In this document: piece after piece, positions 4,461 through 22,113 of the stretch
Layout: the number at the start of each line of letters is the position of its first letter
Numbering within the stretch: the stretch's first letter is position 1
Source of the DNA: an uncultured Alphaproteobacteria bacterium
GTDB taxonomy: Bacteria > Pseudomonadota > Alphaproteobacteria > Rs-D84 > CACZYB01
Direction of reading: 5' to 3'
Length of the DNA stretch: 32,000 nucleotides
NCBI GenBank assembly: GCA_934246625.1
Contig: CAKQHZ010000002.1
Location: 150,001-182,000 of the forward strand
Notes under the pieces: model-generated
Told to the model about the DNA's origin: nothing
The model's input: the letters and a program-made list of their open reading frames with translations, nothing else
Database searches by the model: none
Translations under genes and position numbers: made by a program

Positions 4461-5204
4461 TCAATATTGAGCTTTTTCAAAATAAAGACCGCAAGCAGGG
4501 GCGGTTGGACCAGCAACTTTTCGGTCCTTTGCATTAAGTATTTTTATAAAATCTTCCTCTGTAAGTTTATGACGACCGACCATTTCAAGTGTGCCGACAA
4601 TATTTCTTACCTGATGATGAAGAAAGGATTTTGCATTTACCTTTATTTCTATTAAATCGTTATATCTTTCTACACTTATTTTGTCAAGTGTTTTGATAGG
4701 GGATTTCGCTTGACATTCAGAGGCACGAAACGATGAAAAATCGTGTTTGCCGACAAGGTTTTGTGCTACTTTGTCCATAAAATCAACGTCCAATGGGTGA
4801 TATACCCACCATACACGATTTTTTTCAATAATGGGGCGTGATGGACGATTTAGGATTTTGTAAATGTAATATCTTTTTTTGCATGAAAATCTTGCGTGGA
4901 AATCATCATCTACTTTTTCAACATTAAGTATGGTTATATCTTCGTTTGCAGATTGAAGATGAAAATTTGTTGCCATTAAAATTTTGTATGGGTCGTATTC
5001 CTTTGAAAGTTCTATGTGTGCGGACATTGCGATTGCGTGAACGCCAGCGTCTGTGCGGCCTGCAGAATAGCACTCTGTTTTTTCACCACAAAATTTGAAT
5101 ATGGCGGTTTCTATTGCCTGTTGTATAGATGGGCTGTCGTCTTGGATTTGCCAACCAGAATATTTTGTTCCGATATATTCTATTTCAAGTTTGTATTTTG
5201 CCAT
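4461..5204 (-). CDS. truA: tRNA pseudouridine(38-40) synthase TruA
   Basis: 'YIGTKYSGWQIQ', the catalytic 'GRTDAGVHA', and 'FLHHQVRNIVG'. Confidence 0.95.
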   Translation of the reverse strand: MAKYKLEIEYIGTKYSGWQIQDDSPSIQQAIETAIFKFCGEKTECYSAGRTDAGVHAIAMSAHIELSKEYDPYKILMATNFHLQSANEDITILNVEKVDDDFHARFSCKKRYYIYKILNRPSRPIIEKNRVWWVYHPLDVDFMDKVAQNLVGKHDFSSFRASECQAKSPIKTLDKISVERYNDLIEIKVNAKSFLHHQVRNIVGTLEMVGRHKLTEEDFIKILNAKDRKVAGPTAPACGLYFEKAQY

Positions 5205-13363: not shown

Positions 13364-14647
13364 ATGCAAGTAGTTGAACAAATTGAAGAACATAGCTTTG
13401 GTGTAAGTTTGATTCTTTCATATAAACCTGAGTCTGGTATTGGGCAAAGGATTGCTCGTTCTTTGGATAATAAGTTTGGTTGGAAAAAAAATGTGGTTTC
13501 AAAACAACTTAATTTTGATAAGCCTATCGTTCTTTGTTTTGGTGGAGCAGGGATTGATGATGATAAATCCGCAAATGGTATTGCAAAGATTGTTCAGGGT
13601 ATGCTTGGAAGAAACAATATTTATGATAATGATGTTCAACTTTTTTCTGTTGTGTATCCAAAGGATTTGGAACGACTTGGCGATGAAAGAGCTAAATTCC
13701 TTCGTGGAGAAATTAAGAAAAAAATCGATTACATAGGACGAATTTATGAAACTATATTTATCCCAATGTTGCGATTTATTATTGAAAATGGTGATGATAA
13801 ATCTTCACTTGATATAGTCAGAAAGCAATTTCGTAATATTACAATATTTTCACATTGTCATGGAAGTTTTGTTGCATGTGAGCTTATAAATTATTTAAAG
13901 GAAGGTTTTGAAATCCTTTGTAAAAAAAATACTATTTCAAAAGAAAATGCGGATAGCTTGATTGGTGAAATTACCAATATAATGCTTAGCCCTCGTGATG
14001 GGGTGCAATATAGCTATGGTGCACTTAATCTTGGTTTTACTATGGCGACGGATAATCTTGAAGGTGGTATAAAGGAACCTCAACGTAAGGGATTTAATGT
14101 TGGTATTTCGAATTTTGCGGATAAACTTTTGGCTGGAAAAATTAAAGGGTGTGAAAGTTTTGGATTTAAAGATGGTGCCTTTTTTAATTTTTGGGATACG
14201 GACAGATTTGGTGCCGATATTAAATTTATTGATGATATGGACGACTCTTTTTGTGGAAATGTTTCTGAAATGATTTATTCCAATATTTTTATGGGTAATC
14301 ATTTCCATCTTTTTGAAAATTATTGTTCTTTGAATGGTGGTTTTGATGAAGATGGTGTTGGTGCAATTCTTAAAAATGAAAAGGGTAAAAATTTTACTTA
14401 TATGATTGCGAGAGCTTTGCAAAATGCGGTTTCTCTTTCTTTGGCAGGTAAAAAACGCACCATTGAAAATGTTGTTTCAAATGCTACTCCGATTATTTAT
14501 AATAAAGGAGATAAAGAAAGTAATCTTGATTTTTTTGATGTGAAGTTTGATGGTTCACTTGAAACTTTGTTTGCAAATTATAACAAGATGATTGGTGGGT
14601 CAAAAACATCTTTGACTTTATCTGAAATTTCACAAAATCAAAGATAG
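13364..14647 (+). CDS. hypothetical protein, possible alpha/beta-hydrolase-like fold with Cys/Ser nucleophile elbow
   Basis: AAGGAG SD and a TTGACA-16-TAAAAT promoter upstream. No signal peptide. 'PIVLCFGGAG' and 'ITIFSHCHGSF' resemble an oxyanion strand plus a small-x-Nuc-x-small elbow. No family recognised. Confidence 0.6.
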   Translation: MQVVEQIEEHSFGVSLILSYKPESGIGQRIARSLDNKFGWKKNVVSKQLNFDKPIVLCFGGAGIDDDKSANGIAKIVQGMLGRNNIYDNDVQLFSVVYPKDLERLGDERAKFLRGEIKKKIDYIGRIYETIFIPMLRFIIENGDDKSSLDIVRKQFRNITIFSHCHGSFVACELINYLKEGFEILCKKNTISKENADSLIGEITNIMLSPRDGVQYSYGALNLGFTMATDNLEGGIKEPQRKGFNVGISNFADKLLAGKIKGCESFGFKDGAFFNFWDTDRFGADIKFIDDMDDSFCGNVSEMIYSNIFMGNHFHLFENYCSLNGGFDEDGVGAILKNEKGKNFTYMIARALQNAVSLSLAGKKRTIENVVSNATPIIYNKGDKESNLDFFDVKFDGSLETLFANYNKMIGGSKTSLTLSEISQNQR

Positions 14648-14885: not shown

Positions 14886-15182
14886 TTAATTTTTGTGATG
14901 GCAACAATCACATTCACATTCATCATCATCTTCTTCATCGTGGTTGCAATCGCAATGTTCACAATGACAATGATGGTCGTTGTCGCAATCACAGTCGCAA
15001 TGATTTATTGGGTCTTCTTCTTCATCAGGATCTAAATCTTTATCGATTTGAACGGTAAATGAAGTGCAATCATCCATAAAACCATATTTTTCAGCATCTT
15101 TTTCATTTTTGATGAATTCGGCAATTTCTTCGTCAGAGATGCCAAGTTCCTTTGCTTTTTTCATAAGTTCTTCATTTATCAT
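14886..15182 (-). CDS. small acidic protein with Cys/His/Asp-rich C-terminal tail (putative metal-binding)
   Basis: AAGGAAAA SD. N-terminal helical part 'MINEELMKKAKELGISDEEIAEFIKNEKDAEKYGF', followed by 'HCDCDCDNDHHCHCEHCDCNHDEEDDDECECDCCHH'. Confidence 0.7.
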   Translation of the reverse strand: MINEELMKKAKELGISDEEIAEFIKNEKDAEKYGFMDDCTSFTVQIDKDLDPDEEEDPINHCDCDCDNDHHCHCEHCDCNHDEEDDDECECDCCHHKN

Positions 15183-15408: not shown

Positions 15409-15511
15409 ATTGTCTATGAGAATTTAGTTTTTATTAGTATGTGTATATATTGGATAAGTAAATATTCTTTAATTCCTTGATTTTACTATTAAATATTTTA
15501 TTGAAAAGTCT

Positions 15512-15648
15512 CTCTACAAAAACGAACGTTTAGATTTAATATATATTCATATTACGAATAATATCCTAAAAGTCAATAAATTTATACACTTATATCCTCC
15601 CCATTTACCTCTTATTTCTATATCAAATAAACGTTGGTTTTTGTAGAG
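15512..15648. promoter_or_regulatory. candidate invertible DNA element: 21-bp inverted repeats (20/21 match) flanking a 95-bp AT-rich core with promoter-like hexamers
   Basis: IR-L is 15512-15532 (CTCTACAAAAACGAACGTTTA). IR-R is 15628-15648 (TAAACGTTGGTTTTTGTAGAG). Each IR has its own dyad AAACG-AA-CGTTT. The core carries TTGACT(15576-15571)-16-TAATAT(15554-15549) on the minus strand. See findings. Confidence 0.5.
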
Positions 15649-15819
15649 GCAAAATCGCTGAAATCGGCTGGGTTTAGTATGGATTTTAACTATAAAATAG
15701 GAGATAAATATGAAAAAGTATGCTTAATTTTAGTAAAAAAATTTGTATGTATATTATCTTTACAAAAGTTTAAAAATATAAGATAATGCTTTTATTAACT
15801 TAAAAATAAGGAAAAATAA

Positions 15820-16560
15820 ATGAATAAACCAGTTATAAAAAATATTATGTGGGATGTTGATGGTGTTCTTGCAAGTCTTGATCATGCATACTATCGCTTT
15901 TTAACAGAACACCCTAACTATAAGGAAACATATAAGGATTTAAAGTGGGAGGATTTGCCAAAGGCTCTTCCAATCGATCCAAAGTTTGGTTCCCTTGAAC
16001 TTACTTCTCATCCAACTATGGGAAAGGCTTTTAATGAAGATTTTTGCCACAACAGTGGTGAAATTTATTTCGACAGACCTTTGTATCCTAATGTCGTTGA
16101 AACATTGACTGAACTTCATAAAAAAGGATATTTGCAACTTACTATGTCTTCTGGTTTTAATGCAGAAGTCAAAAGAAAAATGATTGCCGATACTTTGGGT
16201 AGTGAACTTTCTTTTGTTAATATTGAAGTTGTTGAACATCAAAAATCAACTAAAGATGCAAGTCATGGTAAAGCAATGGTTGGTGAAAAAGAACAAAGAA
16301 TTATTGAATGTTTAAAAAAATACAATCTTAAACCAGAAGAAACTGTGCTTGTTGATGACCGAATTTTTAATTGTGAAACTGCATTAAAAGTTGGTATGCA
16401 CACAGTTCGTTGTCGTTCAGGTTTTACAACAGATACTCCTCCTGAAATAAAAGAAAAACTTGATGCAGAAGTAAAATCAGTTGCAGAATTTAAAGATTGG
16501 CTTTTAAATAATACAACATTTTATAATACTAACGAATTAAACAAACAAAATGAAAGATAA
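15820..16560 (+). CDS. HAD-superfamily hydrolase (phosphatase/nucleotidase-like)
   Basis: Motif I 'MWDVDGVL', motif II-like 'LQLTMSSG', motif IV 'VLVDDRIFN'. It ends 2 nt before kdsB. Confidence 0.7.
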   Translation: MNKPVIKNIMWDVDGVLASLDHAYYRFLTEHPNYKETYKDLKWEDLPKALPIDPKFGSLELTSHPTMGKAFNEDFCHNSGEIYFDRPLYPNVVETLTELHKKGYLQLTMSSGFNAEVKRKMIADTLGSELSFVNIEVVEHQKSTKDASHGKAMVGEKEQRIIECLKKYNLKPEETVLVDDRIFNCETALKVGMHTVRCRSGFTTDTPPEIKEKLDAEVKSVAEFKDWLLNNTTFYNTNELNKQNER

Positions 16561-16562
16561 AA

Positions 16563-17336
16563 ATGAGTAAAGTTATTACAATGATTCCTGTCCGAATGGC
16601 AGCAACTCGTCTTCCAAATAAACCTCTTCTTGATATAAATGGTAAATCACTTATACAAAGAGTTTTCGAAAATGTTCGTAAAGTTATTCCTGGAGATGTC
16701 GTTGTCGCAGCTGGGGATAAAGCTATTGTTGATGAATGTGCAAAGTTTGGTGCAAAGGCTGTGCTTACTGACCCAAGTCTTCCAAGTGGAACTGACAGAA
16801 TTGCTTCTGCATTAAAGGAAATTGACCCTGATGGCACAAAGTATGACATAGTTGTAAATTTTCAGGGAGACAACATCAATGTTGATCCATCTGTATGTCT
16901 TCCACTTGTAAAAATGGTTGAAGATACCGGTTGTGATATTGCAACTTGTGGTATGGTCTTTAAATCTGAAAAAGATGTAAATGATCCAAATATGGTAAAA
17001 ATTGTTATGGGAATCAAAGATGGTGAAGATGAAGGTCGTTGTATATATTTTACACGAGCTCCTGCTCCATTTATAAGAAATCCAGAGAAATCAAAATCTC
17101 ACAATTTCTATCATCATATAGGTATCTATGTCTATAAGGCAGAATCTTTGAAACGTATGGTATCACTTCCTGTTGGTGTATTGGAAGATAGAGAAGCTCT
17201 TGAACAACTTCGTGCAATCGAAGATGGTATGACAATTCGTGCCAAAGTTATTGGTGGAATGAAACTTGTTGAGGAAGCTCCTGCTGACATAAATACTATG
17301 GAAGAATATGAAGAAGCCAAAAAATGGATTAAATAA
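16563..17336 (+). CDS. kdsB: 3-deoxy-manno-octulosonate cytidylyltransferase (CMP-Kdo synthetase)
   Basis: 'IPVRMAATRLPNKPLLDINGKSLIQRV', 'SGTDRIA', 'VVNFQGD', 'HHIGIYVYK', 'LEQLRAIEDG'. Confidence 0.92.
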   Translation: MSKVITMIPVRMAATRLPNKPLLDINGKSLIQRVFENVRKVIPGDVVVAAGDKAIVDECAKFGAKAVLTDPSLPSGTDRIASALKEIDPDGTKYDIVVNFQGDNINVDPSVCLPLVKMVEDTGCDIATCGMVFKSEKDVNDPNMVKIVMGIKDGEDEGRCIYFTRAPAPFIRNPEKSKSHNFYHHIGIYVYKAESLKRMVSLPVGVLEDREALEQLRAIEDGMTIRAKVIGGMKLVEEAPADINTMEEYEEAKKWIK

Positions 17337-17358
17337 ATTATTTTATTGTAAAAATTAA

Positions 17359-17382
17359 GCCCTCAATTTTGAGGGCTTTTTT
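17359..17382. terminator. rho-independent terminator between convergent kdsB and the HTH gene
   Basis: GCCCTCA-ATTT-TGAGGGC hairpin followed by T6. Confidence 0.7.
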
Positions 17383-17403
17383 GGTTGGTAAACTATTTTG
17401 TTT

Positions 17404-17637
17404 CTACCCCTCTAAATACTTAGAGAATTGCTCCCATGAAAGACCAGTAGCCCTCATAACCTTACAAATACTCTCCGTAGATGGCCATCTGAATTTGCCA
17501 CTAGGATAAAACCTTTTACTCTTATTAAATGCTGTAGCATCAAGACCTGCCTTTTTAGCCAAAGCAGAAACAGAAATACCGTTTATGTATGCAATCTTGT
17601 CAATAGTCCCCCAGATTTTAGAATGTTCTGTATCCAT
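17404..17637 (-). CDS. small HTH DNA-binding protein resembling the N-terminal domain of alphaproteobacterial LexA/CI-type repressors (copy 1)
   Basis: 'GISVSALAKKAGLDATAFNKSKRFYPSGKFRWPSTESICKVM' matches the ..LAR.AGLD.T.FNKSKR....R.RWPSTESI.K pattern. ATG 17637 has an AAGGAG SD. A TATAAT box lies inside the ORF-track's 16-aa N-terminal extension. Confidence 0.75.
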   Translation of the reverse strand: MDTEHSKIWGTIDKIAYINGISVSALAKKAGLDATAFNKSKRFYPSGKFRWPSTESICKVMRATGLSWEQFSKYLEG

Positions 17638-17714
17638 AACACAACTCCTTTGATTATAGTTCTCTCTTACGACAATCTCATACAATACATATTACAACTT
17701 ATACTAGAAAATAA
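17404..17714. repeat. left copy of a 311-bp inverted repeat (pairs with 19088..19398)
   Basis: My manual alignment of its reverse complement against 19088-19398 gives 301/311 identities. Seven of the 10 mismatches fall in the last ~60 bp at the gene 3' end. Confidence 0.9.
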
Positions 17715-17859
17715 ATATAATTGCAAGTCAAATATTTAAAGGAGAAATAATGACAGAGGAGAAAATGAACCTAATGTATTGAAAAGACGGAATAAAGCAA
17801 AGGTGTGAGAATAAAAACCTTTGGTGCCGGAATTGGGTGAGTAGGTGTGATTTAGAGAT

Positions 17860-17889
17860 AAAAAAAGGAGGAGATTCGTTTTCTCCTCC
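17860..17889 (-). terminator. rho-independent terminator of kdsA
   Basis: GGAGGAGA-TTCGTTT-TCTCCTCC hairpin. On the minus strand it is followed by T7 (the A run at 17860-17866). Confidence 0.7.
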
Positions 17890-17918
17890 CTTCTTATACA
17901 TAGAAATGTTGTTTATTG

Positions 17919-18806
17919 CTATATAGCCTGACCTTCTTGAACCCAATCTTCAAGACGAGGAAGGTTTGCCTTTGCAACTGTATCTATCGCCTTTAATTGA
18001 GTTAAAACTTCCTCCATATACATCAAAGGAATTGCATTCCAAATATCGGAACCTCCTTTTAATGGCTCTGGGTGAGTTTCAATAAATACTCCAGCAATAT
18101 GACCAGTAGATAATGCTGCACGAGCAATAATTGGAGCCATACGACCTTCTCCACCAGAAGAATCTCCCATAGCAGCAGGTTTTTGCACAGAGTGAGTTGC
18201 ATCAATAACAACTGGGTATCCTGTTTCAGCCATAGTAATTAAGCCTGTATTATCAACAATCAAAGCGCCATATCCGAATGAAGTTCCACGTTCGGTTAAG
18301 CAAAGGTTTGTATTTCCATTTGCTTCATATTTACCAATAACATTTTTCATATCCTTTGGAGCCATAAATTGAGCTTTTTTAAGATTACATGCTTTACCAG
18401 TTTTTGCAATCGCACTTGATAAATCTGTTTGACGAATCAAGAATGCAGGTTGTTGAATCATATCAACATGAGGAGCAATAATACTTGCTTGTTCTTCAGT
18501 ATGAACATCGGTAATTACAGGAATATGAAATGTAGAACGGATTTCATCAAAAATTTTGATACCAGCTTCTATACCAATACCTCTTGCACCATTAACAGAA
18601 TTTCTATTAGCTTTATCAAAGGAAGCCTTAAAAATATAATTTATTCCAAGTTTTTCAGTTAAATTCTTCATATATTCAGCAATCTTTAATGCCAAATCAC
18701 GATTTTGAAGTTGGCAAGGTCCTGCAATCAAAGTAAATGGTAAATCATTACCCATTGTAATTTCCTTTGTAATACCACCACCAACTTTTATATGTTTATT
18801 TTCCAT
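17919..18806 (-). CDS. kdsA: 3-deoxy-8-phosphooctulonate (Kdo-8-P) synthase
   Basis: 'LIAGPCQLQ', 'KASFDKANR', 'VITDVH', 'IQQPAFLIRQTDL', 'NLKKAQFMAP', 'LTERGTSFGY', 'DATHSVQ', 'GVFIETHPEP'. Confidence 0.95.
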   Translation of the reverse strand: MENKHIKVGGGITKEITMGNDLPFTLIAGPCQLQNRDLALKIAEYMKNLTEKLGINYIFKASFDKANRNSVNGARGIGIEAGIKIFDEIRSTFHIPVITDVHTEEQASIIAPHVDMIQQPAFLIRQTDLSSAIAKTGKACNLKKAQFMAPKDMKNVIGKYEANGNTNLCLTERGTSFGYGALIVDNTGLITMAETGYPVVIDATHSVQKPAAMGDSSGGEGRMAPIIARAALSTGHIAGVFIETHPEPLKGGSDIWNAIPLMYMEEVLTQLKAIDTVAKANLPRLEDWVQEGQAI

Positions 18807-19087
18807 TATTTAAAATCCTTTCAATTATTTATAATTAAAAATTATATCATAAGGTAATTAAGTTAGCTATAAAAAAATAATTACATTATTTATCTTTATT
18901 ACATAGTTAAAATATAAGATGAAAATTGAAATTTTTATTAAAAAATTTACTGATTGATAAAAATTTTTCTTATTCTTAAAAGATATAACTTTGTAAAAAA
19001 TATAGTAAAATCAAATACAAGGTTCAATTATTTAACAGAACTTTTCTTATCCCCCACGATAAGAATATCTTCCTCTTGTATTTCTTC

Positions 19088-19398
19088 TTATTTTCTAGTA
19101 TAAGTTGTAATATATATTGTATGAGATTGTCGTAAGAGAGAGCTATAATCAAAGGAGTTGTGTTATGGATACAGAACATTCTAAAATCTGGGGGACTATT
19201 GACAAGATTGCATACATAAACGGTATTTCTGTTTCTGCTTTGGCTAAAAAGGCAGGTCTTGATGCTACAGCATTTAATAAGAGTAAGAGGTTTTATCCTA
19301 GTGGCAAGTTCAGATGGCCATCTACGGAGAGTATTTGTAAGGTTATGAGGGCAACAAATCTTTCATGGGAGCAATTCTCTAAATATTTAGAGGGATAG
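19088..19398. repeat. right copy of the 311-bp inverted repeat
   Basis: See 17404..17714. The repeat starts at TTATTTTCTAGTATAAG and ends at the HTH stop codon. Confidence 0.9.
19165..19398 (+). CDS. small HTH DNA-binding protein, copy 2 (near-identical paralog of 17404..17637)
   Basis: Within the Met-17 CDS it is identical to copy 1 except 'ATNLSW' versus 'ATGLSW'. Same SD and -10 context. Confidence 0.75.
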   Translation: MDTEHSKIWGTIDKIAYINGISVSALAKKAGLDATAFNKSKRFYPSGKFRWPSTESICKVMRATNLSWEQFSKYLEG

Positions 19399-19427
19399 GA
19401 ATAGAAAGAACCAATTATGTAGAATTA

Positions 19428-19461
19428 CCACAAGAGGATATACTCCTCTTGTGGAGGTTTT
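19428..19461 (+). terminator. probable rho-independent terminator
   Basis: Perfect 11-bp stem CCACAAGAGGA-TATAC-TCCTCTTGTGG followed by AGGTTTT, a weak T tract. Confidence 0.5.
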
Positions 19462-19542
19462 AGCGACATATTTTCATAGCATACATAAGGTGAAATCTGA
19501 TAATTCTTATAATTTTAATAATCAAAATTATAGGAGTAAAAA

Positions 19543-20136
19543 ATGATTTATGGATATATTCGAGTTTCAACAGAACAGCAAAATACCGAAAATCAATATC
19601 ACGAAATTTTAACCTTTGCAAAACATCAAAATTTAATTATCAATAAATGGATTGATGAAGTTATTTCATCAAAAAAATCACTTAAAGAAAGAAAACTTGG
19701 CAACCTTTTAAAACATCTTAAAAAGGGTGATATTTTGATTGCATCAGAGCTTTCTCGACTTGGTAGAAATCTTTTGGAAGTCATGGGAATTTTACAAAGT
19801 TGTTTAGAAAAAGATTGTCAAATTTGGACCATAAAAGAAAACTATCGTTTGGGTTTGGATATTCAATCAAAGGTGCTTGCTTTTGCATTTTCTTTGGCTG
19901 CAGAAATTGAAAGACAACTTATTTCTCAACGAACAAAAGAGTCGTTGAAACGGTTAAAAGATGAAGGCAAACATCTTGGTCGTCCAATAGGTTTTGCGCA
20001 TAAAAAACTTGATTCAAAATGTGATGAAATAAAAGAACTTCTTTCAAAAAATATTTCCAAAGCCGAAATTGCACGACTTATGAATTGTTCGTGGATTACT
20101 TTACATCGATATATACAAAAAAGGAATAAAAGATAA
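19543..20136 (+). CDS. serine recombinase, small DNA-invertase type (Mpi-like)
   Basis: 'MIYGYIRVSTEQQ' contains the catalytic Ser. Also 'ASELSRLGRN', 'NYRLGLDIQSKVLAFAFSLAAEIERQLISQRTKESL' and a C-terminal HTH 'ISKAEIARLMNCSWITLHRYI'. At 197 aa, its length and central motifs match my recollection of Bacteroides Mpi-family invertases. Confidence 0.85.
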   Translation: MIYGYIRVSTEQQNTENQYHEILTFAKHQNLIINKWIDEVISSKKSLKERKLGNLLKHLKKGDILIASELSRLGRNLLEVMGILQSCLEKDCQIWTIKENYRLGLDIQSKVLAFAFSLAAEIERQLISQRTKESLKRLKDEGKHLGRPIGFAHKKLDSKCDEIKELLSKNISKAEIARLMNCSWITLHRYIQKRNKR

Positions 20137-20162
20137 GATATTCTTATTGTGGAAGAGTTTGT

Positions 20163-20891
20163 TTATTCTTGTGTTGCAGGTTCGTCGGGTTTTACCCAAA
20201 TCATTTTATCGCCAAGAGAGGCAATAAATTCGTCGTGATTTTTTAAATCTTCTTCTGGTATTGGAAAGTTTCGTGATTGATGAAACTCCCTTTTTTGTGC
20301 CTTGACTTCTTTGGTTGTTGCCTTTACTTCGGTTTCTTCGTTTGAAGTTTTGAAAAAGTCAATTTCCTTTCCACCAAGAAGTTCAATATAGACTTCGGCA
20401 AGCAATCTGGCATCAAGTAAAGCGCCGTGCAAATCACGGTGAGAGTTATCAATTCCATAACGATTGCAAAGTGCGTCCAAGCTGTGTCTTGCAAGATGAG
20501 GATTTTTCTTTCGTGAAATGGCAAGTGTATCAACCATTCTGTCGAATGAAATTTCTGGAAGATTTAGTCTTCGAAATTCGGCATTGATAAAGTTCATATC
20601 GAATACAGCATTGTGAGCAACCATATCTGCATCACCAATAAAGTCAATGAAACTTTGTGCAATTTCCTTAAATGTAGGTTTATCGGATAAGAATTCAGTT
20701 GTTAATCCGTGGACCTTTACAACTTCCTCTGGAACTTCTCGTTCAGGATTTATGTAGCAATGAAAAGTTTTTCCAGTTGGTGTATGATTTATCATTTCAA
20801 CACAACCAATTTCAACTATTCTGTCATCGCCAGAATAATTAAAACCTGTTGTTTCGGTATCGAATACTATTTCTCTTATTGCTTCACTCAT
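20163..20891 (-). CDS. dnaQ: DNA polymerase III epsilon subunit (3'-5' exonuclease)
   Basis: Exo I 'IVFDTETTG', Exo II 'MVAHNAVFDMNFI', Exo III 'HGALLDARLLAEVY'. Confidence 0.93.
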   Translation of the reverse strand: MSEAIREIVFDTETTGFNYSGDDRIVEIGCVEMINHTPTGKTFHCYINPEREVPEEVVKVHGLTTEFLSDKPTFKEIAQSFIDFIGDADMVAHNAVFDMNFINAEFRRLNLPEISFDRMVDTLAISRKKNPHLARHSLDALCNRYGIDNSHRDLHGALLDARLLAEVYIELLGGKEIDFFKTSNEETEVKATTKEVKAQKREFHQSRNFPIPEEDLKNHDEFIASLGDKMIWVKPDEPATQE

Positions 20892-21552: not shown

Positions 21553-21801
21553 ATGTTTGAAGATATACAAAATTTATCATTTGAAGAGGCTTTGGCTGAA
21601 CTTGAATCCATTATCCATAAAATGGAAGCAGGGGATATAAAACTTTCTGATTCAGTTAGCTTTTATGAAAGAGGAATTAAGTTGAAAAATCATTGTGAAG
21701 AGATTTTGAAATCTGCACAATTAAAGATTGAAAAAATACAACTTAAGCCACTTGAAAATGGCGATGTGGAAATGGAAACTGTTCCTTTTGAAGTGAAGTA
21801 A
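21553..21801 (+). CDS. xseB: exodeoxyribonuclease VII small subunit
   Basis: '[44 protein letters not shown]' is the canonical XseB helix hairpin. Confidence 0.9.
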
Positions 21802-21825
21802 GTATATTCTTTGAATGTGAAAATG

Positions 21826-21856
21826 ACTCCTTGTCTTTTGATGAGGAGTTTTTTTA
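21826..21856 (+). terminator. rho-independent terminator
   Basis: ACTCCT...AGGAGT hairpin with a 12-nt loop, followed by T7. Confidence 0.55.
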
Positions 21857-21918
21857 TGTTTGCATTTTTTTATAATGATTATAATAAATTATTGATAGAA
21901 AAATGAAAATCAATTAGG

Positions 21919-22113
21919 TTAGTTGCCTAAACGATTATCAAGTTTTTGTTCCATATCTTTCATTATCTTTTTTGCTTGGGCTGGATTTTTTGCTTTGACT
22001 TCAATCTTTTCTGTTTTGGTAAGTGTTGTTGTTGCATCAGCCGATGAGATGATAGCTATGCTTGTTGAAAGAATAAGTATTAAGATAAGTGCCTTGATAA
22101 TTTTGTTTTTCAT
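21919..22113 (-). CDS. small secreted protein, unknown function
   Basis: AAGGAGA SD. Signal peptide 'ALILILILSTSIAIISSADA'. Preferred over the mirror ORF 21923..22117, which lacks an SD. Confidence 0.6.
   Translation of the reverse strand: MKNKIIKALILILILSTSIAIISSADATTTLTKTEKIEVKAKNPAQAKKIMKDMEQKLDNRLGN

Follow-up and report, generated by a model that had tools for sequence, protein, structure and literature searches.

A kdsA segment bracketed by inverted copies of a dispersed HTH-gene repeat occurs in both orientations among strains of an uncultured gut alphaproteobacterium

The DNA analyzed here, a stretch of 32,000 nucleotides (the window), comes from an uncultured gut alphaproteobacterium found commonly in human gut metagenomes, including those of the Hadza. 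In this window, kdsA lies between two inverted copies of a 311-bp repeat, each of which carries a small gene for a helix-turn-helix (HTH) protein (Table 1). To the left of this structure, a HAD-kdsB operon (15820..17336) sits between a candidate promoter inverton and the left HTH copy, while a gene for a small serine recombinase is located beyond the right copy. An Rfam search of the window returned two tRNAs and nothing else.

Table 1. Features of the kdsA locus in window coordinates.
Feature	Position	Strand	Description
Candidate promoter inverton	15512..15648	.	21-bp inverted repeats (IRs) CTCTACAAAAACGAACGTTTA / TAAACGTTGGTTTTTGTAGAG, 95-bp spacer
HAD-family hydrolase	15820-16560	+	domain and family profile matches
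kdsB	16563-17336	+	domain and family profile matches
Downstream module x	17337..17403	.	spacer between kdsB and left copy; terminator-like bidirectional hairpin 17357-17378
Left 311-bp core repeat	17404..17714	-	HTH gene 17404-17637 (G allele) plus 77 bp upstream
Upstream module a	17715..17860	-	146 bp, from kdsA terminator to left core; common to the polA (L038) and gltX (L053) copies
kdsA intrinsic terminator hairpin	about 17858-17895		strong hairpin
Invertible unique cargo	17861..19041	-	kdsA terminator, kdsA, 235 bp of AT-rich upstream DNA
kdsA	17919-18806	-	NF003543, 355.7 bits
kdsA promoter-like site	18873-18846		within AT-rich upstream DNA
Upstream module b	19042..19087	+	46 bp, hairpin 19044-19065; common to the glycosyltransferase and Cas9 copies
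Right 311-bp core repeat	19088..19398	+	HTH gene 19165-19398 (N allele) plus 77 bp upstream
Downstream module y	19399..19466	+	perfect 11-bp-stem hairpin 19428-19454; common to the Slam and Cas9 copies
Small serine recombinase	19543..20136	+	N-terminal catalytic Resolvase (3.4e-30), C-terminal HTH_7
dnaQ-downstream sequence like inverted module b	20118..20165 (approximate)	-	alignment and direct reading

Aligned without gaps, 17404-17714 and the reverse complement of 19088-19398 are identical at 301 of 311 positions, and an identity of 97% over such a length is far beyond chance, which rules out a chance origin. A repeat search of the window delimited the inverted arms as 17396-17727 and 19075-19406 (332 nt, 95% complementary). 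Homology between the arms stops abruptly at each end, and their longest identical stretch is 144 bp. Both copies consist of a 234-nt ORF plus 77 bp of upstream sequence, the latter including an SD and the promoter-like site ATGAGA-17-TATAAT (17681-17653 in the left copy). The arms are arranged head-to-head, with the same gene pointing outward from either side of an interval of about 1.35 kb, and the two 77-aa proteins are one residue apart (G versus N). The conserved motif AGTATAAGTTG is present in the HTH gene's own promoter.

These observations agree with an earlier note on this DNA, which had described the inverted 301/311 copies at these positions, the composition of each arm as a 77-aa HTH gene plus 77 bp of upstream sequence with TATAAT and SD, the single G versus N protein difference, an inter-arm segment holding kdsA, its terminator and an AT-rich upstream region alone, and a serine invertase gene starting 145 bp beyond the right arm. 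Its account of the mismatches stands in part. The 10 mismatches do cluster towards the outer end of the arm, where the gene has its 3′ end; counted from there, their offsets are 4, 16, 41, 42, 43, 46, 91, 112, 257 and 285, with six falling within 46 bp and seven within 91 bp rather than seven within ~60 bp as had been claimed.

The HTH protein matches the Pfam family HTH_26 weakly, close to its 22-bit cut-off (left copy 22.2 bits, right copy 20.6 bits), and searches of NCBIfam, PDB and PHROG sequences with it gave no match. Close homologues carry the JGI annotation ‘phage repressor protein C with HTH and peptidase S24 domain’. The 77-aa protein, a putative Cro/C1-like HTH regulator, is related to the N-terminal domain of alphaproteobacterial COG2932/S24 ‘phage repressor’ proteins, although, unlike these, it has no peptidase domain. 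In many Alphaproteobacteria the homologues are small single-copy chromosomal genes, whereas ~7-8 near-identical copies are present here.

The kdsA segment occurs in both orientations among independent gut-metagenome assemblies. kdsA is opposite to kdsB in the window and in L004, L008, L029, L028 and L031, and it is co-directional with kdsB in L001, L002, L003 and L050 and, at the right-hand junction, also in L009 and L010. Strains that carry the inversion keep collinear flanks; their middle segment has its two ends exchanged precisely where the core begins on the inner side, and the breakpoints fall inside the core. Each haplotype's orientation is reproducible across different samples, individuals, studies and assemblers, the calls being drawn from metaSPAdes NODE contigs, MEGAHIT k141 contigs and MERR22 scaffolds. 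No sample with both orientations was seen in these consensus assemblies, where minority orientations are invisible. Opposite orientations occur between haplotypes that are ~1% different, and the fixed orientation of each haplotype looks like a strain polymorphism with no visible on/off switch. Since both orientations are found in natural populations, recombination across the repeats does flip kdsA, which the earlier note had foreseen.

No SNP fixed between the two orientations was found within the kdsA segment. The window's nearest kdsA segment has the opposite orientation, and the relationships are reticulate. A single origin of the window-type orientation was set aside, as the monophyly that a neighbor-joining tree of the kdsA segment suggested for it is undercut by the absence of fixed differences and by this nearest segment.

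Deletion variants also exist, in which an arm is missing in whole or in part or the recombinase is gone. In one of them (L030) the left arm is absent, the gap between kdsB and kdsA is 16 nt, and TAAATAA is present at both edges of the indel, while another (L006) is missing the right arm together with the recombinase. No microhomology was found at the junction where the truncated-arm variant has a 213-bp deletion. Rearrangement was seen solely at the closely spaced inverted pair around kdsA, and the other loci that carry the repeat are structurally stable.

These other loci show the kdsA arms to be two members of a dispersed family of near-identical repeats with roughly 7-8 copies in this species. 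The same 77-aa protein and 311-bp core (95-98% nucleotide identity) are present at polA, Slam, glycosyltransferase, Cas9 and gltX loci, with the right core sharing 97-98% nucleotide identity with the polA, glycosyltransferase, Slam and Cas9 locus copies. Five repeat copies reside on one 714,895-bp contig. In total, 323 contigs have the exact HTH protein and 41 have kdsA. A scan of JGI metagenomes with a 29-mer from the core yielded just two short contigs.

The repeat copies have mosaic flanks: module a or b precedes the core, and module x, y or z follows it. At the polA locus, the copy (L038) matches window positions 17404-17860 at 97.6%. Alignment and direct reading indicate that module b resembles the DNA just downstream of dnaQ, and module x is 100% conserved in all strains. 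Module y, whose hairpin is likely the terminator of the HTH gene, stops at the point from which (19470) the window is homologous to DNA upstream of paralogous recombinases; matches extend to 19466 in L040 and to 19459 in L042, and the match of L036 starts at 19470.

Core copies cluster by genome rather than by locus, which points to concerted evolution. Moreover, both arms of a genome share private variants, such as a signature unique to L028, and this supports the gene conversion between the arms that the earlier note had proposed. Two of its other readings were not borne out. The 3′ mismatch cluster does not single out the kdsA pair, being an allelic region in all copies of the family, shuffled across all of its loci, and the arms do not form a pair dedicated to switching, as the family has seven or more dispersed copies. 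Mapping of crossovers from arm SNPs was ruled out, because homogenization of the arms within genomes makes the crossover point unmappable by this means.

The recombinase encoded beside the right arm matches NF009949 (‘master DNA invertase Mpi family’) at positions 1-195 of 197 with 271.5 bits (E = 4e-81), just short of the cut-off of 272, and it also matches phrog_125, DNA invertase. Its paralogues and orthologues number in the hundreds, share 82-86% identity and belong to the Mpi family by NCBI name. Candidate short promoter invertons are present at several of the same loci. The spacer of the unit at 15512-15648 holds TTGACT-16-TAATAT on the minus strand; this unit is located upstream of the HAD-kdsB operon and 1.8 kb upstream of the kdsA arms, and its own arms are conserved in strains. 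Related units are found at the Slam, Cas9 and gltX loci. In L028 and L036 an inverton lies immediately upstream of a recombinase paralogue, and in L044 the central dinucleotide is changed from AA to AT in both inverton arms. A flipped inverton state was found in 0 of ~24 contigs, the spacer orientation being constant relative to conserved flanks in these assemblies, which hide minority states.

The IR consensus of the Mpi system in Bacteroides fragilis is ARACGTWCGT, and the core AAACGAACGT of the inverton at 15512-15648 resembles it. As with Mpi, several elements have short IRs (21-bp arms, roughly 80-95-bp spacers) and a sigma-70-like promoter, and the window recombinase matches the family model over its full length. 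However, the host here is an alphaproteobacterium and not a member of the Bacteroidales, the invertons are unflipped in the ~24 contigs, and the 311-bp kdsA arms are not of the promoter-inverton type. The master invertase Mpi of B. fragilis is cited in PMC7641763 (reference 5: Coyne et al. 2003).

In four related species kdsA is followed by xseB and ndk, both in the opposite direction, and then by dnaQ and HTH in the same direction as kdsA; one HTH gene is present and the recombinase is absent. From the sequences of these species it can be inferred that a single HTH gene directly downstream of dnaQ is the putative ancestral state. The sequence at about 20118-20165 may be what is left of the stretch between dnaQ and HTH in this ancestral arrangement.

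We consider it probable that the kdsA inversion polymorphism arises by homologous recombination between dispersed repeats, and most likely it is this process, not the invertase, that makes the flip. An HTH gene that is single-copy in relatives would have been amplified in this species, and one copy with module a and another with module b would have come to lie inverted, 1.35 kb apart, around kdsA. Homologous recombination would homogenize the copies by gene conversion, and occasional crossover resolution between the inverted copies would flip the kdsA cassette. Both orientations of kdsA would then circulate as a strain-level polymorphism beside deletion derivatives, while the Mpi-family invertase would serve another class of sites, the short 21-bp-IR promoter invertons.

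The kdsA locus, with arms of 311 bp that are ~97% identical, shares with inversions by homologous recombination between dispersed repeats (rrn operons, IS copies, duplicated genes) the long, highly similar, inverted and multi-copy repeats, the breakpoints inside them, the gene conversion and an orientation that varies among strains and is apparently fixed in each. In contrast to rrn and IS inversions, the repeat here consists of a 77-aa regulator gene that is intact, has its own promoter-like site and is apparently functional, and the segment is just 1.35 kb long, contains one essential-pathway gene and is adjoined by the gene for a site-specific invertase.

This adjoining gene brings to mind a programmed site-specific inversion, an explanation we regard as rather unlikely, in which the invertase acts at a site within or at the edge of the HTH repeat and the kdsA flip is a phase-variation or shufflon-like switch. 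Salmonella Hin/H, phage Mu Gin/G and phage P1 Cin/C are invertible segments served by serine invertases, and the inverted repeats of the P1 C segment, at ~0.6 kb, are a precedent for long arms. As in this classical layout, a small serine recombinase gene is found immediately outside one repeat (145 bp from the arm), and both orientations of the segment occur naturally. In contrast to the Hin, Gin and Cin systems, however, no recombinase-type crossover site was found in the kdsA arms, the arms belong to a genome-wide repeat family, neither promoters nor alternative coding ends are swapped, and no mixture of orientations within a population was seen in the consensus assemblies.

Scans of the 311-bp arms for an invertase site (the 26-bp inverton site, a 12-2-12 dyad and AAACS-NN-SGTTT) gave nothing above chance and no sites resembling the inverton arms of the family. 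The best arm match to AAACS-NN-SGTTT has two mismatches, which is the chance level, with 63 such matches in the 32-kb window. The sole dyad found in the arms is CTCTAAATATTTAGAG, a perfect palindrome of 16 bp at ~10 bp from the right arm's outer end. It could be an unrecognized site, but it is unrelated to the inverton site, its left half is polymorphic among repeat copies, and the palindrome is not conserved in related species. Some linkage between repeats and invertons does exist that would favor programmed inversion: at four loci HTH copies are one or two genes from an inverton unit, and at the position equivalent to the end of module y (19466) paralogous recombinases have an inverton arm. 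Confinement of rearrangement to the kdsA pair would also fit a recombinase that acts in cis, yet the repeats at five or more other loci would carry the same site and are stable. The orientation is, moreover, uniform per haplotype over several samples, which speaks against a switch. These findings suggest that the recombinase most likely serves the 21-bp-IR promoter invertons, such as that at 15512-15648, and not the kdsA arms.

The expected consequences of the flip also argue against programmed inversion. Inversion alters neither promoter-gene nor coding junctions and changes read-through partners alone, a possible effect of a switch being to redirect kdsA read-through between HTH-recombinase and the kdsB-side HTH. 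A flip should change little, since kdsA is furnished with a promoter-like site and a terminator of its own and the two arms are symmetric. A small functional consequence is therefore to be expected, the promoter-like site and terminator of kdsA traveling inside the segment. The kdsA flip is probably nearly neutral and not a regulatory switch.

We judge it improbable that the HTH unit is, or once was, a small mobile or mobilizable cassette of which two insertions bracket kdsA in a composite-like manner. Such a cassette would explain both the differing place of kdsA relative to related species, among which its neighbors vary, and the presence or absence of arms among strains, as in the variants without the left arm (L030) or without the right arm and recombinase (L006). 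It would also fit the seven or more near-identical copies here against one in relatives, and a polA-locus copy that carries module a and half of a terminator like that of kdsA, which gives it the look of a copy made from the kdsA locus. However, no constant termini, terminal inverted repeats or consistent target duplication were found in the repeat copies, and the upstream modules have the appearance of native intergenic sequence that was captured from the 3′ sides of dnaQ and kdsA. The same loci are filled in every strain sampled, and thus there is no sign of current mobility. A composite IS or other transposon was rejected, as a transposase is absent in or near the structure, its ends are not constant and its flanks are mosaic, in line with the earlier note's statement that this is not a composite IS.

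Chance or an assembly artefact, in which collapsed or mis-joined contigs created the repeat or its orientation, was rejected as scarcely credible: the repeat is multi-copy, has 144 bp of uninterrupted identity and is where many contigs break off, and in L004 and L059 the copy on the kdsA side runs on into the downstream flank of the glycosyltransferase locus, a join that looks chimeric (the 45-nt odd end of L004 being the z flank of another repeat copy), but the structure is reproducible across assemblies, each orientation is recovered repeatedly per haplotype from different individuals, studies and assemblers, the arms have phaseable differences, and the window agrees with three 100%-identical assemblies.

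A broader and doubtful proposal is that HTH repeats, short promoter invertons and Mpi-like invertases belong together as one modular system, with one or two cargo genes enclosed between an inverton and an HTH unit at several loci. The bracketed cargo comprises HAD-kdsB, a 183-aa gene, bPH_2-DUF488 and a 171aa-345aa pair, and these loci are often at the edge of strain-variable islands of defense or surface genes. If this were true, the near-identical HTH units would be portable anchors for recombination and regulation, the invertase or invertase-guided recombination would flip or exchange cassettes, and kdsA would be one captured cassette.

If homologous recombination between the dispersed repeats is indeed the cause, the locus would be a natural example of an essential LPS-pathway gene placed in a small flippable cassette, with recombination between amplified regulator copies flipping the cassette or removing its arms. 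It would also caution that inverted repeats with a neighboring invertase gene need not mean a programmed switch. Possibly of more weight than the kdsA flip are three features that, as far as we could find, are apparently undescribed: a regulator that concerted evolution maintains at ~7-8 near-identical copies, Mpi-type promoter invertons that form a family in a host outside the Bacteroidales, and the repeated co-location of the HTH repeat and invertons beside strain-variable genes.

The region around kdsA holds one outstanding inverted repeat, in which a repeat search pairs 17396-17727 with 19075-19406 over 332 nt at 95% complementarity. An ungapped comparison of the left arm (17404-17714) with the reverse complement of the right arm (19088-19398) yields 10 mismatches in 311 positions; identity runs unbroken for up to 144 bp, and past both ends similarity drops abruptly. 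Recomputation bore out the locus described in an earlier note, with inverted arms carrying small HTH genes, kdsA between them and an invertase gene nearby. The mismatched offsets, counted from the outer end, are 4, 16, 41, 42, 43, 46, 91, 112, 257 and 285. Their clustering at the 3′ ends of the genes, as proposed in that note, is real, although the count is 6 within 46 bp and not 7 within 60. The two encoded 77-aa proteins differ by a single residue.

Features of the kdsA locus, flanks of dispersed HTH copies and inverton units (window positions, except where a handle such as L040 denotes another contig)
Feature	Position	Placement or strand	Details
Arm contents		each arm	77-aa ORF plus 77 bp upstream with ATGAGA-17-TATAAT promoter-like site
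kdsA	17919-18806	minus	NF003543, 355.7 bits
Strong intrinsic-terminator hairpin		directly downstream of kdsA	
AT-rich kdsA upstream region			promoter-like site 18873-18846
Module a (upstream flank)	17715-17860	right after kdsA terminator	also at polA, gltX loci
Module b (upstream flank)	19042-19087		also at glycosyltransferase, Cas9 loci
Module x (downstream flank)		kdsB side	
Module y (downstream flank)	19399-19466		perfect hairpin; also at Slam, Cas9 loci
Module z (downstream flank)			at polA, glycosyltransferase loci
Small serine recombinase ORF	19543-20136	starts 145 bp beyond right arm	Resolvase 3.4e-30, HTH_7
Candidate Mpi-type promoter inverton	15512-15648 (unit ~15420-15672)	between tRNA-Val and HAD-kdsB operon	
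Inverton unit copies	L040 4395-4553, L044 4393-4552, L048 4393-4539, L042 4840-4900, L053 6-109		

The main revision of the earlier picture is that these arms belong to a dispersed repeat family. In the same species, the exact 77-aa protein is also encoded elsewhere, at the unrelated polA, Slam/TPR gene, LPS-type glycosyltransferase, cas9 and gltX loci, and five copies, including the two that flank kdsA, lie on one 714,895-bp contig. The exact protein occurs on 323 contigs and kdsA on 41, counts that suggest about eight copies of the HTH gene per genome. Common to all copies is the 311-bp core, at 95-98% identity, whereas the flanks are mosaics. In a tree of 25 core copies and a table of their variable sites, grouping by locus is not seen and grouping by genome is frequent, and the kdsA arms of one genome have private variants in common. 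These sequences indicate concerted evolution of the copies through gene conversion. Exchange between the two arms had already been proposed on the basis of their 3′ mismatches; the private variants of the arm pair speak for it, but the mismatch cluster is a family-wide feature, since the variable positions toward the 3′ end form an allele set shuffled among all loci.

By sequence, the protein is a weak Cro/C1-type HTH, with an HTH_26 score at the cut-off, and sequence searches of PDB and PHROGs returned no relatives. Its homologues are small single-copy genes in many Alphaproteobacteria, labeled COG2932-like at JGI.

Contigs encoding exactly the window kdsA, kdsB or HTH protein were compared with the window segment by segment. 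The window order, kdsB> <HTH <kdsA HTH> recombinase>, recurs in contigs from three other samples that are 100% identical to the window (L004, L008 and L029) and in a second haplotype (L028/L031). The opposite order, kdsB> <HTH kdsA> HTH> recombinase>, is present in L001, L002, L003 and L050, and the right-hand junction shows the opposite kdsA orientation in L009 and L010 as well. Flanks are collinear in every oriented contig, and the middle segment has its two ends swapped, the exchange lying at the inner boundaries of the 311-bp core. The kdsA segments of nine haplotypes have 5-30 differing sites. Because none of these is fixed between the two orientations, and because the segment closest to that of the window (L010, 12 differences) is oriented oppositely, a neighbor-joining tree of the segment that had pointed to a single origin is judged unreliable. 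At least one inversion event is required and more are possible, the count being blurred by recombination among strains. The window bin 18001-19000 is the sole 1-kb bin with a clearly negative GC skew (-0.125; neighbors +0.03 to +0.15), which would fit a recent kdsA inversion in the window strain, with coding-strand bias alone as an alternative.

Sequence is exchanged between the two arms and between these and the rest of the family, the inversion breakpoints fall inside the arms, and each haplotype keeps a stable orientation. Homologous recombination of the kind that homogenises the copies would also produce crossovers between the arms that flip the kdsA segment, and the outcome would be a nearly neutral inversion polymorphism. 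We consider this the simplest explanation and a reasonably probable one. A flip leaves promoter-gene and coding junctions unaltered, and the sole asymmetry of the two states is the DNA beyond the arms. Read-through from kdsA, if any, would run into the HTH-recombinase pair in the co-directional state and into the kdsB-side HTH copy in the window state.

It is rather unlikely that the segment is instead inverted by the invertase, a reading favored by the recombinase gene adjoining an arm, by the rearrangement being seen in this close pair only, and by a palindrome of 16 bp close to the outer arm end. This palindrome, the sole dyad in the 311-bp arms, is made up of the last codons of the gene, and a search of the arms for an inverton-like site found nothing similar. 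Origin of the arms as mobile cassettes, which would account for copy number and for presence or absence, is improbable, as element-specific ends are lacking. An assembly artefact is very unlikely: the same haplotype has the same orientation across individuals and assemblers, which also argues against rapid switching visible at the consensus level.

The recombinase scores 271.5 bits over its full length against the NCBIfam ‘master DNA invertase Mpi family’ (cut-off 272) and matches phrog_125, DNA invertase; these bacteria hold hundreds of homologues at 82-86% identity, named Mpi family by NCBI. Its likely substrates are short promoter-bearing inverted-repeat elements. One of these, with arm core AAACCACCGTCTA, a spacer of ~80-110 nt and a TTGACT-type promoter inside the spacer, lies directly upstream of a paralogue in L028 and in L036. 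The candidate inverton in the window has 21-bp arms, CTCTACAAAAACGAACGTTTA and TAAACGTTGGTTTTTGTAGAG, with the dyad core AAACG-AA-CGTTT; its 95-bp spacer carries TTGACT-16-TAATAT on the minus strand, directed away from HAD. These arms are conserved across all strains, and the whole unit (at least 190 bp) has copies, 87-94% identical with ~30-70 bp of flank included, at the Slam, Cas9 and gltX loci, in every case with an HTH copy one or two genes away. In L044, AT replaces AA as the central dinucleotide of both arms, a paired change of the kind that would be expected of serine-recombinase crossover sites. No flipped state of the candidate was seen among ~24 contigs.

Downstream of its outward-facing promoter, with tRNA-Val between, lies a 98-aa ORF (14886-15182, minus strand) whose N-terminal half is acidic and whose tail is rich in Cys, His and Asp (HCDCDCDNDHHCHCEHCDCNHD...). 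A conserved 427-aa protein without a Pfam match is encoded at 13364-14647; in L028-type strains this region is replaced by an island in which a further recombinase (195 aa; nucleotide identity 78%, amino-acid identity ~85%) sits immediately upstream of the HAD operon (L028 1-3100; also L034, L035), together with HTH_73, 349-aa and 474-aa genes and with an inverton of its own upstream. At L036 2700-3600, a recombinase homologue with an upstream inverton of the same type adjoins a Hachiman (HamA/helicase) defence system.

Four related species (L016-L018 and L021) have the order kdsA> <xseB <ndk dnaQ> HTH>, with one HTH gene (~90% identical) and without the recombinase; the L016 surroundings are housekeeping genes, including pfk, map and typA. 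Alignment and direct reading indicate that, in the window species, DNA immediately 3′ of dnaQ resembles inverted module b. We infer that module a natively flanks kdsA on the 3′ side and that the co-directional orientation is probably the older state, because the b-linked copy there keeps its ancestral orientation relative to dnaQ. In other relatives kdsA neighbors typA (L012) or glycosyltransferases (L015), and synteny is therefore fluid in this clade. Some strains carry a 203-aa GNAT acetyltransferase gene inserted after xseB (L001 9941-10552, L009 4242-4853) that is missing from the equivalent spot in the window (~21801-21919).

Several other structural variants exist. In L005, L007 and L041 the recombinase-side arm is reduced to its outer 98 bp, with an identical junction on three different kdsA-segment backgrounds. 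L006 lacks both this arm and the recombinase; ~105 nt of unrelated AT-rich DNA substitutes (1400-1580), and homology returns in the last 17 nt of the recombinase gene. In the most divergent strain, L030, both the kdsB-side arm and the 281 bp upstream of kdsA are missing, and kdsA comes 16 nt after kdsB as an operon (4740-4830); TAAATAA stands at either edge of this 660-bp indel. Two independent contigs (L004 1-45 and L059 1-780) join the z flank of the glycosyltransferase locus to the b-HTH-kdsA side, loci that lie ~55 kb apart on the 714,895-bp contig bearing both. This join is either a chimera via a 357-bp shared repeat or a genuine recombinant of distant copies.

Exact look-up places the window proteins in assemblies of human-gut metagenomes from the Hadza and other cohorts, and NCBI MAGs with these proteins are labeled ‘Alphaproteobacteria bacterium’. 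Among species of the genome collection, the nearest are uncultured Alphaproteobacteria of gut and rumen (kdsA identity 75-91%), and window G+C is ~31%.

In its working, the kdsA locus is comparable to inversions mediated by rrn or IS repeats, whereas its likeness to Hin/Gin/Cin segments is superficial: of four defining features that were tested, two are absent. The HTH repeat co-occurs with Mpi-type inverton units and strain-variable genes, including Mrr, an ICEA/methylase pair, cas9 and Hachiman next to a paralogous recombinase. A limited literature check found no prior description of such an amplified HTH repeat with Mpi-type invertons in an alphaproteobacterium. What is unusual is the nature of the repeat, an intact regulator gene with apparently about eight near-identical copies, its co-occurrence with Mpi-type invertons and strain-variable genes, and the presence of all these in an alphaproteobacterium.
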